IMG/VR virus record: IMGVR_UViG_3300010429_000387
Coordinates: 160,001 to 224,000 of that record
DNA from: a virus
Lineage: Duplodnaviria; Caudoviricetes
Strand: one strand, 5' to 3'
Length of the DNA: 64,000 nucleotides
In this document: piece by piece, positions 11,820-27,661 of the stretch
Layout of the letters: the number at the start of each line of letters is the position of its first letter
Position numbering within the stretch: the stretch's first letter is position 1
Notes under the pieces: generated by a model
The model's input: only the letters and a program-made list of their open reading frames with translations
The model's database searches: none
What the model was told of the DNA's origin: nothing
Position numbers and translations under genes: made by a program

Positions 11820-12260
11820 ATGCCCAAGTACGTCTTTGAGTGCCAGACCTGCTCTACACGGTTCGAGCGTACCCTGAAGATGGGGGACCACCCGACTCAG
11901 CCCTGTCCTTCTTGCAAGGAGGATGCCCCTAGACTCTTTGCAGGTAATGGGTTTGGGTTCGGATTCTCTGCCCCTGCCAACGCTGCCCCAGCAAATACAG
12001 GGGTTCACAGTCAGGACTACCCGACTGCTGACCAGATTGTTGGTCGGAGTGCAGAGCAACGGTGGGGAACCTACAACAAGCGGGACGAAGTCAAGAAGAA
12101 GGTGCGTGAAGAGGGCAAGAGCCCAGCCCTGGCTCGCTTGGATGGAGATGGATACACCGAGTATTCGGCTATGGCCCCGGAAGAGCGAGGGGCTAGGGAG
12201 AAACTGGTGGACTATGCCGTCCAGATAGAGAAACAGCCCGAAGCAAAGCCACCCCAATAA
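11820..12260 (+). CDS. FmdB-family zinc-ribbon protein
   Basis: MPKYVFECQTCSTRFE...PCPSCK (MPxYxxxCxxC..CPxC). Confidence 0.8.
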   Translation: MPKYVFECQTCSTRFERTLKMGDHPTQPCPSCKEDAPRLFAGNGFGFGFSAPANAAPANTGVHSQDYPTADQIVGRSAEQRWGTYNKRDEVKKKVREEGKSPALARLDGDGYTEYSAMAPEERGAREKLVDYAVQIEKQPEAKPPQ

Positions 12261-12293
12261 AGTGTTGTTTTGACTTGTGTAGGGTAGAAACCA

Positions 12294-12448
12294 TCCGGTA
12301 CTCGCAGACCGGACACTAGATGTAGATCGACTCAAATCAGATTGCTGCCAGATGGTTGCCCTCTGGGGCCATCACAAACACCGAGGAATTTCCTCGGAAG
12401 ATCAGATCGGATGACATCCCCCAGAACTGATTTGAGGAGAATCGGATG
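12294..12448 (+). promoter_or_regulatory. Structured YAGAY-repeat leader or ncRNA upstream of the sheath gene (element 1)
   Basis: About 12 YRRAY-type pentamers. Hairpins at 12294-12313, 12351-12373 and 12381-12397. Ends at RBS GAGGAG and CGGATG start. Confidence 0.55.
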
Positions 12449-18850: not shown

Positions 18851-18891
18851 CCTCTTGGTTGAAAGAACCTCCCCTGGTCCGTTGTAGAGCT

Positions 18892-19233
18892 ATGACGACC
18901 TCGAACTACTCCAAGACGGACTGGGAAGTTGACCTGACCTCGGACCTCGTGTCCACGGGCTACAATGAGGACGGCGAGGAAGTCATCCGGGAGTGCTTCT
19001 ACGTGACCCTGACGAACAGCTTCGGGGACCGATACCGCTCGAACTTCTCGTCTTTCAACAGGAAGGACGTTGAGGTTCATGAGAAGAAGGTGGCTCGTCA
19101 CCTGGTCCTCGGTTGTTCACCTGTGGGCTCCTCCAAGTGGACCCCGCACTACCCGGTGTACGGTTCACCGGCATATTCGTCTTACGGGGCGGCAGAAGAG
19201 GTCGCCTGGGAACGCAAGATGGATGCAGCATGA
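18892..19233 (+). CDS. Hypothetical phage protein
   Basis: 113-aa ORF with matching codon bias, ending YPVYGSPAYSSYG..VAWER. Confidence 0.65.
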   Translation: MTTSNYSKTDWEVDLTSDLVSTGYNEDGEEVIRECFYVTLTNSFGDRYRSNFSSFNRKDVEVHEKKVARHLVLGCSPVGSSKWTPHYPVYGSPAYSSYGAAEEVAWERKMDAA

Positions 19234-22805: not shown

Positions 22806-22827
22806 CCGGTCGGTGTAGACTCCGACC

Positions 22828-23679
22828 ATGCAGGTGTCGGAGCTTCAGTTCCAAGTTCTCGTTGACCCAGGGCTCCCCTCGATTGTGAGTGGAGCCCTGT
22901 GCTTTGAGACCGGAGCTACTCGGGAGCAGTTGGGTCCTGGGGTCTACGAGCACCATGGTGCTGGGTTCCGACCTGAGGACCCTGGAGCCCTCACTCGGTT
23001 CTACGAGGACCTTCTCCTGGGAACACCCCTACCCCTCGTCTTTGCCACCAAAGAGGTTCGTGGGCCTGACACCCTCCTGGCGATAGCTCTCTTCCTGCAC
23101 CGGGAGCTTGCCCTTGTCCCAGCCGCTACAGGGTTGGTGGCCGGGGTAGACCTCTACCATCGTTGGGGGCCTCCACTCCTTGCCCATATCGAACCGGCCC
23201 TTGCTGGGTTCCTCCGGACCTTCGACAAGTTCTTCCCCTCCAACCTGACCAAGAGGGAGCGTGGAGAGAGGATCGGAATGGGTGCTCAATGGGTTCGAGA
23301 GTTCCTTCTGGAAGGGAACCTCCCCAACCTGGGGACTCCTCTGCCTGAGGTTCGAGTAGTGGACATTGGGTCTAACAGCTTCGTTCTTGCTGAAACCATG
23401 TCCCCCTCCGTTGAAGCCTGGGAGGTACTGTACAGATCCGGGCACCTACGAGGGGTCCTTCTGGGACCTGATCTTGAGGGTCTTCGAGTTGTTCTTGCCT
23501 CCAGGAAGCACGAGCGAGCATGGCCTGGGATGGGCAATGCTGTGGTGTTCCTAAATGACTTGGAGGGTCTTTCTGGGGGTCAACCCGAGTGGACCTGTGA
23601 TGGGTCCTATCTACGTTCACCACCTGTGGGCTCACGGATCCTCCCCTCCCACCTGCTGGAAGTATTTTTGAGAATGTAA
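22828..23679 (+). CDS. Hypothetical protein, possibly a degenerate DHH-like fold
   Basis: 283 aa; YEHHG and GPDTLLA resemble DHH-type motifs, but key acidic residues are unclear. Confidence 0.45.
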   Translation: MQVSELQFQVLVDPGLPSIVSGALCFETGATREQLGPGVYEHHGAGFRPEDPGALTRFYEDLLLGTPLPLVFATKEVRGPDTLLAIALFLHRELALVPAATGLVAGVDLYHRWGPPLLAHIEPALAGFLRTFDKFFPSNLTKRERGERIGMGAQWVREFLLEGNLPNLGTPLPEVRVVDIGSNSFVLAETMSPSVEAWEVLYRSGHLRGVLLGPDLEGLRVVLASRKHERAWPGMGNAVVFLNDLEGLSGGQPEWTCDGSYLRSPPVGSRILPSHLLEVFLRM

Positions 23680-23699
23680 GGGCAACCCAGGGGGTTATC

Positions 23700-23906
23700 G
23701 TGTTGCCAGTGACTATCGACCAAGAGACACGAGAAAGTCGTGTAGTTGAGAGACTTTACCCTCTTACCGAGGACGGGTTGGACCTTCTGAGTGAGGTCGA
23801 TGCTTTACCCCCTCCCCCGCTAGTTCCAGGTTTCGCCAGGGACACTATCCCTTGTCCTCCCCCGGATCCCAACGAGTGGACCTCGGATGAGGATCCGGGG
23901 TGGTGA
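23700..23906 (+). CDS. Small acidic Pro-rich hypothetical protein
   Basis: 68-aa ORF filling an intergenic gap; GTG start. Confidence 0.4.
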   Translation: MLPVTIDQETRESRVVERLYPLTEDGLDLLSEVDALPPPPLVPGFARDTIPCPPPDPNEWTSDEDPGW

Positions 23907-23935
23907 ATCTTGTTGTCCGTCTTCTGCTCTAGGAG

Positions 23936-25498
23936 ATGGCACCCTCACTCATCACAGTCGCTACCGACGGGTTCCGGGACTACGTTGACCTCCCAGACGG
24001 AAGGCAGCTCAATCTCGGGTCTGTTTCGGTCCTGAAGTTGGTGACCTCTCTTGTCTCCAGCTCGACTGACTGTCGAAAAGCACTCGACGGATTCCTAAGC
24101 AAAGGTTCGACCACCATCAAGGTTGACCTGCAAGCTCTGGAGGGGCTTTTGCGTCCTCGCAGGGCACGATGGGCGGGGCATGGTGATCCGTTTATCCCTG
24201 CTGATTCTCGTCTACACTTCAGAGGCGCAAGCATGAACCCAGTCCAAGCTATCCACACCCACATCGACGAAATCGAGAGGCATGTCGCTGCGCTTCAGCA
24301 AGAAGCTGGGCAGGGACAAGAGCAACAGGAGAAGTCCGCTGGCCTTCACAGGGTCGTGGCGGCACTTCTGGGCCTGGTGACTCAAACGGAGGCCGAAGGG
24401 CTCAGCGCTAAGCTGTCAGCCATCGAGTCCACGATTGATGCCATCAACAAGGCTGGCTCTGCCCCCAAGGGCTCGGTTGAGACCCTTCGTGGCCTCACTG
24501 CAAGCCTCTGTGAGGTGGTGACAGGCAAGACTGCTGCTGTGGACGAGGATGCCAAGCGGGAACTCGAACTCTACATGGAGAACGAGTCGAGGCTCTATCG
24601 TCAGAAGCAGGACATCATCAAGAACATCATGCGGAAGATGAAGGGTGGCAAGTACAACCACTCTCTCGCCCCCAAGTTGTGGATGTACTGGGTTGACGAA
24701 GGCGCCAAGATGTACGTCCGTGAGTTCGGTGGGGACGTGAAGACCATGTTCCCGAAGCAACTTCGTGAGGAGTTGGCGAAAGAGATCGCCAACGACCAGA
24801 AGAAGCTCATCGAGGATGGGGAGTACGACAGCCTCAAGGTCGCTGCTGAACAGGATTGGTCAGTTACAGCCTCCGTCAAGTGGAATGAGGGGGATGGGTC
24901 CTGGACAGCTAATGGCGAGGGCGACTTCATCAAGAAGGTCACCATCACAGAGATCAAGGGTCCTGGGATTCCTCTGTACGTGCTGAAACTCACTACTGAG
25001 AAGGGTGAGTTCAAGTACAAGAAGGAGTACAAGAAGCTCAATGACGCCAAGAAGGATGGTGAGACCTGGGTGAAGTCTGATGAGGACGGGGCAAGCCTGA
25101 TCCTCACAGACTTCAAGAAGGTCGCTTCTCAGGGACAGGACCAGCAAGGTCAAGACGAGCAGGAGGCCCCTGAAGAGCAGGCCAAGCAGGCTCAGGACCA
25201 ACAGCAAGACCAGCAAGGGCAGGACAAGGAAGCCTCCCTCCGAATCTCTTCTGAAGAAGTTCTGGTGATCAACGAAGCTCTAGCACACTCGGTCATGGCG
25301 AAGGTCGAGAGTGCTCTGAAGGTGGTCGAGGCAAGTGGACTGCCCGGAACTCAAGTTGCCAAGAAGGACTTGAACACCATCTCGATCAAGCTGGCAAAGC
25401 TGGTTGAGGCGTCGGACCTCAAGAACCCGAGCCTCCGATCCGACCTCACGAAGCTCGCCAGCATGGCAGACAAAGTTCACTCTCACTTCGCCGCCTGA
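23936..25498 (+). CDS. Modular protein, putative internal head polyprotein
   Basis: RBS AGGAG. Domains are separated by KSAG, KTAA, KVAA, KVAS, KQAQ, KEAS and Gln-rich linkers. Confidence 0.7.
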   Translation: MAPSLITVATDGFRDYVDLPDGRQLNLGSVSVLKLVTSLVSSSTDCRKALDGFLSKGSTTIKVDLQALEGLLRPRRARWAGHGDPFIPADSRLHFRGASMNPVQAIHTHIDEIERHVAALQQEAGQGQEQQEKSAGLHRVVAALLGLVTQTEAEGLSAKLSAIESTIDAINKAGSAPKGSVETLRGLTASLCEVVTGKTAAVDEDAKRELELYMENESRLYRQKQDIIKNIMRKMKGGKYNHSLAPKLWMYWVDEGAKMYVREFGGDVKTMFPKQLREELAKEIANDQKKLIEDGEYDSLKVAAEQDWSVTASVKWNEGDGSWTANGEGDFIKKVTITEIKGPGIPLYVLKLTTEKGEFKYKKEYKKLNDAKKDGETWVKSDEDGASLILTDFKKVASQGQDQQGQDEQEAPEEQAKQAQDQQQDQQGQDKEASLRISSEEVLVINEALAHSVMAKVESALKVVEASGLPGTQVAKKDLNTISIKLAKLVEASDLKNPSLRSDLTKLASMADKVHSHFAA

Positions 25499-25517
25499 CC
25501 AAAGAGGAGCCTGACCG

Positions 25518-26240
25518 ATGGGAAACCCGAGGGAACTCAACACTTACATCTACCGAATGGGGACCGCCCCCAACACTCGTGTAGCCGTCAGCCAGAAGAA
25601 CAAGGTCTACGGCTACATGGTTGGAAAGAACAAGTTCCAACAGATCGGTGTGGTCTCTGAGTTCGGCTTCGATGAGAGCCGGACCATCGATCCCGTCCGT
25701 GGCGTAGGCTTTGGTGACACGGTTGCCGAGCTTGTGCCGGGCGTGACCGAGCCGATGGCCCTGACCTTGAACCGGACCCTGCTCTACACCGTGAACATCT
25801 TCCAGGTGCTCGGGTACAAGGGTGGCGTCGAAGGTCTGGTCAGGTCGCTCCGGCATCACCGCTGGCCGTTCGACATCAAGCAAGAGCTGGTCTTCTCCGA
25901 GCTGTCCTCGAAGGAGGACACGGTTGGTGTGGACTCGAAGAACATCAAGAAGGCCGTTCAGCAGCCCCAGGGTACTTCGAGCCTCTACACGAGTGACATC
26001 AAGGCCCTCTTCACCTTCTACGAGGGTTGCTGGCTCAACAGCTACTCCGCCTCGTTCACGAGCGATGCAGCCATCGTGGCTGAGAACTCTTCGGTGACTG
26101 TCACGGACATCATCGACGGTTTCTCGACCTACGGTGAGTTCATCGACACGGGCCTCAGCCCCGGTGGTGGTGGAACCGCTGGTGGTGGCTACTCGCTCCG
26201 GTTCGCCGGAGGAGCACAGCCCTCAACAACCGTCGGCTGA
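25518..26240 (+). CDS. Tail tube protein
   Basis: RBS GAGGAG and very strong codon bias. QIGVVSEFGFDESRTIDPVRGVG..ELVPG..LTLNR..PFDI..YEGCW..YS..VAENSSV fits the contractile tube fold; precedes chaperones and tape measure. Confidence 0.8.
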   Translation: MGNPRELNTYIYRMGTAPNTRVAVSQKNKVYGYMVGKNKFQQIGVVSEFGFDESRTIDPVRGVGFGDTVAELVPGVTEPMALTLNRTLLYTVNIFQVLGYKGGVEGLVRSLRHHRWPFDIKQELVFSELSSKEDTVGVDSKNIKKAVQQPQGTSSLYTSDIKALFTFYEGCWLNSYSASFTSDAAIVAENSSVTVTDIIDGFSTYGEFIDTGLSPGGGGTAGGGYSLRFAGGAQPSTTVG

Positions 26241-26250
26241 TGGCTGAGAT

Positions 26251-26416
26251 AGGCCCCCTTCAAGGAGGGGGCCTTAGATGAGATTGGACATGCGGCAACG
26301 GATGTAGATGTAGAAGTATCAGATCAGACCCAGATTGTTCCCTCACTCTCCCCGCTTGGTCCTCTGGGCGGGGAGGCTAGATCGGACCCCCGAACTAGAT
26401 GGGATGTAGATGTACA
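26251..26416 (+). promoter_or_regulatory. Structured YAGAY-repeat element or ncRNA after the tube gene (element 2)
   Basis: Hairpins at 26251-26274 and 26348-26375, with about 15 AGAT/GGAT/AGAC-type pentamers in the unpaired stretches. Confidence 0.55.
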
Positions 26417-26479
26417 CATTCACCTCTGCCGTCACCGCTGTCCTTCTCCACCACAACCCCAAACTGGTAGGGTGCGAGA

Positions 26480-27661
26480 ATGGCAAAGTTGCAAGCGAAG
26501 AAGATCACCGAAGCTCTCAAGAAGGCCCAGCGAGTAGGAGAGGTAGAGGTTTCGTTCACCGTTGCTGACTGCAACGTAGTGCTCAGGAGTCTCCGACCTG
26601 AGGAGTATGAAGCCGCTATGCAAGCGGCTCAGGAGTTCGAGGAACTCCAGTACATCAACGCCTTCAAGCGGGAGCACATCTCCCGTGCCGTCTGCGAAAT
26701 CAACGGAGAGTCTCTCCGTGAGTATGATTTCGTGGAGGTGGACGTTGAGGAAACGGACCCTCGAACAGGCAAGGTTTCAACCAAGACTGTAGCCTTGGAA
26801 CGGCATCAGTTCGTCTCCGAGTACATCTTGGCAACCTGGTCTCGGGAAGTCATCGACACCACCTTCCGGAAGTTCAACGAGGTGGTAGCCAAGTCTGAGA
26901 AGGCTTCCACTGAAGGGGTTGAGTTCACCATCCCCGATGAGACCCCGGAGGAGAAGTACCGCCGTCTGCTCATCGAGGCCAAGGAGATTGAAGGGCAAAT
27001 CCCCTTCGAGCTGGTTGGTCGGATCCTGGACGAGGTGGGGTATATGTCCCGGTCGTCCAAGGGTGAGTTGGAAGGGGTCGATCAGAAGCTCGCCCAGGTG
27101 GCGGAGGAGATCCCCCCTGGAGAGGTTCCCGAACCCCAGCCAGTCCCGGTAGCAGCCCCTCAGAGGGCTCCGGTTCGAGCACAAGCTCCAAGCCACCAGG
27201 CACCAGCAAACCCCCCTCAGGAGGCCCCTGAAGTGCCCCTGGCCCGCCCGGTGCGCCCCAACCTCCCTCCGGAGCTTCAGCATCCCGATCCCGAGGTGCT
27301 CATGAGGAGCCGGAAGCCTCTGAACCAGGTGGCCTCCCCGGTTCCCCAACCACCCCAGGCTCAGGTCCCCCAGGCGACTCAGCCCGCCCAGCCCCCTCCG
27401 GCAATGCAGGCCCGCCCGGTCATCCCAGCCACTCCGGCAGCCCTTCGTAGGGCTCAGGAGATCGAGGCGATGGAGCAGCAGGCAGCTCTTCCAGATGACC
27501 CAACTCCTCCCCCCATCCAGGGTGGAACCAGGTTGGCCGAAGGCATCCCTGAGTTGGCCGAGAACATCGCCAAGGTCAACCCTCAGGCAGCCGAACGGAT
27601 CTTCGAGCAGCCCCCGGTTGCAGGGATCAACCCCAGGTTCAAAGCCCCCCCACGTCTTTGA
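26480..27661 (+). CDS. Tail assembly chaperone 1 with Pro/Gln-rich C-terminus
   Basis: Position after the tube gene; VVLRSLRPEE..ISRAVCEING..ILATW..VIDTTF chaperone-like pattern. Confidence 0.55.
   Translation: MAKLQAKKITEALKKAQRVGEVEVSFTVADCNVVLRSLRPEEYEAAMQAAQEFEELQYINAFKREHISRAVCEINGESLREYDFVEVDVEETDPRTGKVSTKTVALERHQFVSEYILATWSREVIDTTFRKFNEVVAKSEKASTEGVEFTIPDETPEEKYRRLLIEAKEIEGQIPFELVGRILDEVGYMSRSSKGELEGVDQKLAQVAEEIPPGEVPEPQPVPVAAPQRAPVRAQAPSHQAPANPPQEAPEVPLARPVRPNLPPELQHPDPEVLMRSRKPLNQVASPVPQPPQAQVPQATQPAQPPPAMQARPVIPATPAALRRAQEIEAMEQQAALPDDPTPPPIQGGTRLAEGIPELAENIAKVNPQAAERIFEQPPVAGINPRFKAPPRL

Follow-up and report, generated by a model that had tools for sequence, protein, structure and literature searches.

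A candidate translational control RNA with tandem AGAU units downstream of a tail-tube-like gene in a jumbo phage

Why does a phage that packs its genes tightly leave 239 bases between a tail-tube-like gene and the gene that follows it, and what might these bases do? The question arises in IMG/VR virus record IMGVR_UViG_3300010429_000387, a complete record of 407,078 base pairs (bp) with direct terminal repeats and a GC content of 57.9%. Bases 160001-224000 of this record were analysed and are called the window here (64,000 nucleotides, nt). The long open reading frames (ORFs) of the window all lie on the plus strand and the gaps between them are very short; just four gaps exceed 180 nt. The gap at 26241-26479, between an ORF of 240 amino acids (aa) and an ORF of 393 aa, is referred to as element 2. 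A first-pass annotation of the sequence had described positions 26251-26416 as a repeat element of the YAGAY type, and the features that it listed there are all present at their coordinates. We propose, with a probability of roughly 55%, that element 2 is a new intercistronic translational control RNA, in which AGAU units would serve as a platform for a putative single-strand binder.

The gap is exceptionally rich in one short motif. AGAT starts nine times (26247, 26276, 26281, 26306, 26321, 26332, 26379, 26397, and 26408), while ATCT does not occur. In 2000 dinucleotide shuffles of the gap the mean numbers of AGAT, YAGAY, and YRRAY were 1.5, 1.4, and 3.9, compared with 9, 8, and 13 observed, and 0 of the 2000 shuffles reached the observed number of any of the three. 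The opposite strand contains no AGAT, no YAGAY, and a single YRRAY. This comparison of pentamer density with shuffled controls had been fixed beforehand in the first-pass annotation; the density lies far above the shuffles and the signal is strand-specific. The gap is also the maximum of YAGAY density in the 64-kb window and of AGAT density in the 407-kb genome (genome mean 0.73 per 200 nt), and an exact 12-nt direct repeat, GATGTAGATGTA, stands at 26301 and 26403. A search of the phage's own genome for strict runs of at least four units was uninformative, the pattern being too rigid. Density of AGAT alone does not identify leaders: the runner-up in the genome, with 8 copies in 200 nt at genome 118026-118226, beyond the window, falls in a coding region with repeated E-I/K-I codons. 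The parts of the gap are as follows.

26251-26274, plus strand: hairpin 1 of the minimum free energy (MFE) fold, 10 bp with loop CAAG, followed by UUAGAUG and no U-tract.
26275-26285, plus strand: first pair of AGAU units in the sequence, TAGATGAGATT.
26280-26283, plus strand: GAGA, outer 5' strand of helix P1, which mimics the GAGA before the start codon and is paired by RNAalifold with TCTC 26445-26448 in 11 of 11 close relatives.
26286-26295, plus strand: 5' strand of P1, GGACATGCGG, in the MFE fold, with pairs kept in 9-11 of 11 close relatives.
26299-26337, plus strand: AGAU repeat block 1, CGGATGTAGATGTAGAAGTATCAGATCAGACCCAGATTG, holding copy 1 of the 12-nt repeat (26301-26312).
26347-26376, plus strand: central hairpin of the MFE fold, 13 bp, containing CCTCTGGG and varying in length and sequence among relatives.
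26377-26414, plus strand: AGAU repeat block 2, made of a small hairpin CTAGATCGG/CCGAACTAG (26377-26398) and then GGGATGTAGATGTA, with copy 2 of the 12-nt repeat at 26403-26414.
26435-26448, plus strand: 3' strand of P1, CCGCTGTCC (26435-26443) and TCTC (26445-26448), the TCTC being shared with the start hairpin.
26444-26482, plus strand: start-region hairpin of the MFE fold, TTCTCCACC... with ...GGTGCGAGAA, directly before and into the ATG at 26480-26482.

The sequence CCTCTGGG within the central hairpin has 90 sites in the genome and, being so common, is no evidence in itself.

The repeats are conserved in related phages. The tube-like protein has 275 relatives in IMG/VR, and the loci of the best 80 of these were compared (contigs of up to 529 kb, loci of 6.7 kb). 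A homolog of the 393-aa protein follows the tube-like gene in 78 of 79 loci, at a distance of 48-259 nt. Repeats were counted in 67 distinct orthologous gaps of related IMG/VR jumbo phages. AGAT is present in 66 of these, with 264 copies in total vs 79 expected (z about 23), while ATCT is found 27 times vs 57 expected (z -4.3), a depletion that is partly a side effect of shuffling. ATGTA, TAGAT, AGATG, and CAGAT are each enriched (z 16-25). TAGAT (95) and CAGAT (93) are equally common, and AGATC units number 70. The density of AGAT is 2.41 per 100 nt in the gap vs 0.48 in the flanks, five times that of the flanking genes, and in 49 of 73 loci the 150-nt segment richest in AGAT within the 6.7-kb sequence overlaps the gap. 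Successive RRAY(C/G) units mostly lie 5 or 6 nt apart. Block 1 is aligned and conserved among relatives with no conserved pairing predicted, and the second box CCCAGATGTAGATC of block 2 is highly conserved. A hairpin comparable to hairpin 1 is optional, being found in 18 of the 67 gaps (27%), and none of these 18 is followed by a U-tract (at least 5 T in the next 8 nt). The shuffles, the genome-wide density, and the enrichment in orthologs together rule out a chance origin of the repeats. Tunturiibacter phage Tunturi_5, a cultured jumbo myovirus, has the same gene order and no AGAT repeats in the three gaps discussed in this work; hence the signal is specific to a subclade. Genomes whose tube protein is more than about 60% identical have the repeats, and genomes like that of Tunturi_5 do not.

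What lies around the repeats points to RNA. Two predicted helices enclose and follow them. P1 pairs 26280-26295 with 26435-26448 and closes a domain of ~150 nt. In the subgroup of the window it has the invariant form GAGA-UU-GGACA-U-GCGG with CCGC-UGUCC-U-UCUC, and its 5' strand GAGAUUGG mimics the start region GAGAAUGG. The second helix, equally invariant in this subgroup, pairs UUCUCCACC... with ...GGUGCGAGAA and runs into the AUG; positions 26471-26479 of the window have pairing probabilities of 0.96-1.0. In more distant relatives the strands of P1 change together (GTGACAGCG/CGCTGTCAT, GTGGCGACG/CGTCGCCAT, GATGACGATGGG/CCCATCGTCATC, GACGGCTTGG/CCAAGCCGTT, and others). Directly 3' of P1, these relatives have a hairpin in which a segment complementary to the Shine-Dalgarno (SD) sequence or to the start codon pairs with the ribosome-binding region, and it also covaries (CCATCCTC/GAGGATGG, CATCCC/GGGATG, CCGTTCTC/GAGAATGG, CCCATTT/AAATGGG). 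The central hairpin has a CTCC...GGAG core in close relatives, and the hairpin that distant relatives have in its position is variable. The repeat block is unpaired in the RNAalifold consensus.

A covariance model of P1 and the start hairpin, built from 15 sequences, gave 49 plus-strand matches in the 6.7-kb loci. All of them fall in the gap downstream of the tube gene and many are outside the seed. Run on the phage's own genome the model returned no significant match (best E 1.3; element 1, described below, E 7.65); the copy in the window belongs to a divergent subgroup. Covariation was counted over 45 distinct aligned rows and compared with 500 shuffles of partners. In both helices together, 91.5% of cells pair vs 74% with shuffled partners and 30-63% with partners slid along, 14 of 14 pairs had changed on both sides, and 117 cells were compensatory vs 35 in the shuffles (0 of 500 reached 117); these counts come from an alignment that was fitted to the model structure and favours it, and the margin is large. 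For P1 alone, 95.8% of cells are paired and 7 of 7 pairs covary; for the 7-bp start hairpin alone, 87% of cells are paired and 7 of 7 pairs have changed on both sides. P1 and the start hairpin also come out of plain MAFFT/RNAalifold. An additional helix, P2 (GAUGUGA with UCACGUC, after box 2), had one compensatory change in a subclade only and shifted register elsewhere; it is not claimed.

The two helices overlap. P1 and the SD hairpin have 3-7 nt in common, and the two are thus expected to trade base pairs. With each conformer forced in turn, the energy difference was 2.6 kcal/mol in the window and 0-5 kcal/mol among eight relatives. Pairing of the start region with covariation and a competing helix are both found here, which makes element 2 a candidate member of the SD-sequestering translational control RNAs, a functional class and not a sequence family. 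In several relatives the 5' strand of P1 starts 12-14 nt past the stop codon of the tube gene, so the RNA is a read-through of the tube transcript and contains the boxes. The following mechanism is proposed. The gap would be transcribed with the tube-like gene and fold into a control RNA for the next gene. Within the P1 domain, AGAU-type units (RRAU and then C or G, every 5-6 nt) would form two blocks around the variable hairpin, and the 3' strand of P1 would overlap the 5' strand of the second hairpin, which covers the SD and/or start-codon region of the 393-aa gene. A trans-acting reader of the single-stranded units, most likely a protein encoded by the phage or by its host, would shift the balance between P1 and this hairpin. 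The balance would then set translation of the downstream, probably low-copy, tail gene relative to that of the tube protein. Action at the RNA level, at least in this gap, is partly supported by the evidence; binding of the repeats in RNA, the identity of the binder, and the direction of control are what we infer from there on.

Several observations weigh against this proposal, in addition to the bias of the fitted alignment. Both helices are invariant in the window's own subgroup, and the covariation comes from comparison between subgroups. In single-sequence folds, AGAT positions are only slightly more often unpaired than other gap positions (0.46 vs 0.40). Some relatives retain a 4-bp SD hairpin together with a full P1, which suggests a graded modulator rather than an on/off switch. 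The Pfam families CsrA, TRAP (PF02081), Hfq, KH_1, S1, CSD, and RRM_1 have no member in the complete phage genome. Finally, neither of the two other leaders with AGAU units has a clade-wide long-range helix, so RNA-level action there is at most putative.

These two leaders belong to the sheath gene and the capsid operon. The first is element 1, with the following features.

12261-12445, plus strand: element 1, an AGAU-repeat leader before a 1439-aa sheath homolog, with a hairpin at 12294-12313 and then CACTAGATGTAGAT.
12331-12340 and 12427-12436, plus strand: element 1 helix, CTCAAATCAG with CTGATTTGAG, which adjoins the SD sequence GAGGAG.

The first-pass annotation had considered elements 1 and 2 related, and local alignment bears this out. 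The score is 51 vs 27 +/- 5 for shuffled element 1 (reached in 1 of 500 shuffles; z 4.8), whereas element 2 scores 27-28, or background, with the two other long gaps of the window and with the reverse complement of element 1. The two elements are collinear through the box, ATCAGAT, CCAGATNGTT, a hairpin, AGATCGGA, and CCCCC-GAAC. Among 58 distinct orthologs of element 1, AGAT is found 207 times vs 37 expected and ATCT 30 times. Its long-range helix is kept only by the closest relatives and is not above shuffled controls clade-wide. A further pentamer cluster had been predicted near the major capsid gene, and the capsid leader has one in this genome and in relatives. The major capsid gene (genome 133.1-134.0 kb) belongs to a two-gene operon whose leader carries CCTAGATGTAGATGAAGATG after a hairpin. 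In relatives there is a small hairpin with changes in both of its strands (CAGTC/GACTG, CAGCC/GGCTG, CAACCC/GGGTTG, CAATCAC/GTGATTG), and after it come the tandem hexamers TAGATG TAGATG TGAATG TGAAG, ~40-60 nt before the start codon. Downstream of the hairpin, no consensus structure was predicted for this leader.

The same motif thus stands in three late leaders, and one reader would also act on those before the sheath gene and the capsid operon. The idea in the first-pass annotation that a single RNA-binding factor coordinates the output of sheath, tube and chaperone survives in part: the conserved, strand-specific signal common to elements 1 and 2 and the capsid leader, and the RNA structure at the downstream ribosome-binding site in element 2, fit a common reader, whereas the factor itself was not found. 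The 290-aa major capsid protein (genome 133119-133991; L159:1319-2191) is 93-99% identical across 80 IMG/VR relatives; the tube-like protein of those phages is 61-93% identical, and the conservation of the capsid protein is unusually strong. In Tunturi_5, the gap before the capsid operon (L240:12850-12960), which in the window's clade carries the AGAU hexamers, holds two direct copies of AATCACAGTGAACG-N-AAAACCAACTACG after a U-tract terminator, and these may be a late signal of its own.

Could the motif be read as DNA? The long AGATGTAGAT box is possibly an oriented DNA site. On this account YAGATGTAGAT boxes or tandem hexamers would be late promoters or direct-repeat activator sites, placed after hairpins that end the previous transcription unit, and the folded RNA of element 2 would be a separate feature. 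In the non-coding DNA of the genome the box AGATGTA has just 7 sites; each is oriented like the genes and belongs to the plus-strand virion module, and most follow a GC-rich hairpin by 1-30 nt. One site heads the capsid operon and another heads the long operon reaching into the window; the genome has 58% GC but the box is AT-rich, and a gene for a Zn-ribbon protein adjoins element 1. No multisubunit RNA polymerase of the phage was found with Pfam (Rpb2_6) and the only sigma-like ORF is a sub-threshold match to sigma-70 region 2, which makes a phage-specific promoter class for the host polymerase plausible. Yet box 1 and box 2 are both enclosed by the covarying P1 in the wider clade, and a transcript starting at either box would lack P1. 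Each gap has two boxes, with no conserved block resembling a -35 element upstream of them, and a sigma-70 scan (TTGACA-like and TATAAT-like, 16-18 nt apart) found nothing in 25400-26700. The conserved core is a short AGAU unit with a period of 5-6 nt, which suits single-strand binders better than duplex sites, and the short orthologous gaps keep their AGAT units but have neither the long box nor the P1 domain. We regard late-transcription signalling as a doubtful account of element 2. Processing of the RNA is plausible and compatible with the translational control that we favour, though unlikely to be the main role of the element. RNase E prefers single-stranded sites of the type R-N-cut-W-U(-U), and the RRAU units, which match its R-N-cut-W-U core, could be cut by RNase E/G-type or other endonucleases; alternatively P1 could be an RNase III-type site, its long bipartite helix with conserved internal loops resembling the T7 RNase III sites in outline. 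Cleavage would uncouple the tube mRNA from downstream cistrons and remodel the downstream ribosome-binding site. The position of element 2 between a high-copy gene and a probably low-copy gene suits such a role, and the upstream hairpin without U-tract could be a 3' stabiliser, but only 27% of relatives have this hairpin. Moreover, RNase E sites are loose while the conservation here is sequence-specific (AGAU far above generic AU-rich sequence) and periodic, and in the capsid leader the repeats head an operon, a position that calls for no uncoupling.

Two further accounts concern the ribosome and small ligands. The first-pass annotation had offered ATG-TAG start-stop units that trap ribosomes as an alternative. 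In the orthologous gaps 75 of 281 AUGs directly precede a stop codon (AUGUAG, AUGUGA, AUGUAA), and ATGTAG occurs 3 times in the window gap vs 0.04 expected. A structured start site beside a single-stranded platform is also the classical layout of a standby site, and the repeats could hold or enhance binding of the 30S subunit until the start hairpin opens. However, trapping as the core function was rejected, as the equal frequency of CAGAU and UAGAU and the AGAUC units, which have no AUG, do not fit it. Only 35 of 123 AGAUG give a one-codon start-stop ORF and the lengths of upstream ORFs scatter, no SD sequence precedes the internal AUGs, and standby sites need no conserved sequence. A ribosome-directed role is therefore very unlikely. 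Least probable of all is a riboswitch, sensing a small molecule or an RNA, with the P1 domain as aptamer and its overlap with the SD hairpin as expression platform. The closing helix does overlap the SD-sequestering hairpin, conserved unpaired nucleotides surround the variable hairpin, and the alternative folds are nearly isoenergetic. On the other side, the two other leaders that have AGAU units differ in architecture or have none that is conserved, the units form tandem repeats rather than a compact junction, the short gaps keep them without the domain, and there is no Rfam riboswitch match.

Several known systems share some features with element 2 and differ from it in others. The TRAP leaders of Bacillus subtilis (trp leader, trpG, trpP, ycbK) contain 9-11 (G/U)AG triplets with spacers of 2-3 nt. 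Element 2 resembles them in its tandem, short, purine-rich units with a 5-6-nt period on one strand of a leader, and in that binding of a multimer would choose between competing structures and free the SD region or not. It differs in its AGAU core (RRAU with C or G), which C precedes as often as U (CAG as frequent as UAG), in having 3-9 units in two blocks instead of 9-11 GAG/UAG triplets in one, and in the lack of a TRAP gene (PF02081) in the phage. Like the CsrA/RsmA leaders, it has several short sites and would be controlled at the ribosome-binding site, and the boxes ACGGAUGUA and GGGAUGUAG of the window's subgroup resemble the consensus RUACARGGAUGU obtained for CsrA by systematic evolution of ligands by exponential enrichment. 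In contrast to CsrA/RsmA targets, which have a GGA core in each site, typically in a hairpin loop, and one site at the SD sequence, most of the clade has AGAUGU without GGA (GGAUGU is found in the window's subgroup only), the boxes are not in hairpin loops, and the phage has no CsrA. The T4 gene 32 operator consists of a folded 5' element followed by UUAAA/UAAA repeats, where cooperative single-strand binding controls translation. Element 2 likewise sets a folded element beside unstructured short repeats toward the start site, whereas its repeat sequence is another one, its repeats lie within the closing helix, no pseudoknot is shown, and no autoregulator of the gp32 type was identified. Like riboswitch expression platforms and the long-distance interactions of MS2-type RNAs, it has a covarying SD/start hairpin that shares nucleotides with a long-range helix; unlike them, it has no identified ligand or coupling partner and no match to an Rfam family. 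It recalls the intercistronic RNase III sites of T7 in the placement of similar structured elements between late genes and in its long irregular hairpin with conserved internal loops, while its helices are short and interrupted and its signature is a tandem single-stranded repeat.

To find the reader, the first-pass annotation had proposed a search for an Sm/Hfq, KH, CsrA, or TRAP-like gene, and this search of the complete phage genome came back empty, as noted above. For TRAP the control genome gave a match; for T4 RegA no match was found in the phage, but the control matched nowhere and this negative is uninformative. Rfam 15 has no match in the window at gathering thresholds, and the best sub-threshold scores in 26200-26520 are at chance level (12-19 bits vs cut-offs of 36-50). 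An antisense partner RNA was considered and rejected: elsewhere in the genome, clusters of ATCT and sequences nearly complementary to the box fall without exception in coding regions and offer no candidate small RNA. A scan for intrinsic terminators found none at the hairpin 26251-26274, which runs into UUAGAUGAG. A literature search on the repeat motif and on jumbo-phage leader RNAs found nothing relevant. One possible nucleic-acid-binding regulator is the Zn-ribbon protein encoded at 11820-12260 (146 aa, N-terminal FmdB-type domain, Pfam Zn_ribbon_8, E 7e-10), whose gene immediately precedes element 1 in every relative examined. A paralog of this gene starts at genome 139541 and is preceded by AGAT units. 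The FmdB-type protein and virion proteins in an assembly feedback are conceivable readers by inference; the reader may also be a host protein.

The genes on either side of element 2 are the following.

25518-26240, plus strand: upstream gene of the ORF list, 240 aa, tail-tube-like virion protein, stop codon TGA at 26238-26240.
26480-27661, plus strand: downstream gene of the ORF list, 393 aa, start codon ATG at 26480-26482, presumably the regulated gene.

The 240-aa protein is 48.5% identical to gp329 of Tunturi_5, a 'virion structural protein', and is related to gp180 of phage G. Language-model (Atlas feature) leads point to the tail-tube families Phi812_tail_tube and DUF2001. The AlphaFold model is unusable (pLDDT, the predicted local distance difference test, 33) and leaves the tube fold without confirmation. 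Leads from the 393-aa protein to tail assembly chaperone families are all sub-threshold, and PHROG, Pfam, and PDB sequence searches with the flanking genes were mostly without matches. The 1439-aa protein encoded after element 1 matches the annotated tail sheath of Tunturi_5. Of the gene labels given in the first-pass annotation, sheath is upheld by this match and tube is reasonable from the matches and leads. Tunturi_5, a cultured distant relative, infects an acidobacterium (Acidobacteriota) (PMC11924767); the host of the phage studied here is probably not a relative of Bacillus. In the frame of the tube gene, the stops TGA 26238 and TAG 26247 are followed by ~100 open codons (26250-26552) that cross the whole gap. 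A coding sequence or readthrough extension was rejected, as in relatives the frame is broken by stops and by indels whose length is not divisible by three. The open frame is probably incidental, since relatives do not keep it open.

Other upstream signals were also noted. The 256-nt gap at 23680-23935, before a 520-aa gene, has no AGAT units; a long hairpin, CCCCGGATCC...GGATCCGGGG, lies in it at ~23871-23900, and so does what may be a 68-aa ORF. The motif GGTTGAAAG-N17-CGTTGTAG-N4-ATG occurs at 18880-18894 of the window and at ~25 other genome sites (e.g., genome 2455, 25152, 294566, and 405424), fixed 12 nt from the start codon and often after an A-run. It resembles the consensus of promoters for extracytoplasmic function (ECF) sigma factors (TGAAA / CGTT), and looks like an ECF-sigma-type promoter that makes leaderless mRNAs. 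A second motif, YYGGTGTA, is found at 22812-22830 of the window and at ~35 other genome sites, 15-16 nt before an ATG that has no SD sequence, and may mark another class of promoter that serves leaderless genes.

How giant uncultured phages regulate their genes has hardly been studied, and the phage translational operators described so far stem almost entirely from a handful of model phages. Element 2 would add a new structured cis-regulatory RNA of jumbo phages, with an AGAU-repeat signature found across the clade. Comparison of dozens of independent sequences defines this cis-element, which has strong covariation and a clear anatomy, and it sits between the tube protein and the next tail gene, where stoichiometry matters. 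The repeat signature, common to the leaders of the sheath gene and the capsid operon, is a handle on the timing and balance of virion gene expression. The RNA could be used as a bait for pull-downs and in reporters with compensatory mutations, and its covariance model could annotate metagenomic phage contigs. A wider and tentative proposal is that this clade of uncultured 200-530-kb phages has a late post-transcriptional regulon, in which a dedicated, sequence-specific binder of single-stranded RNA, from a family so far unrecognised as RNA-binding, would read tandem RRAU(C/G) units at a 5-6-nt period in three leaders and, after the tube gene, toggle P1 against the start hairpin. Should the reader represent a new family of RNA-binding proteins, it would be a further translational regulator that reads repeats, beside TRAP, CsrA, and gp32.

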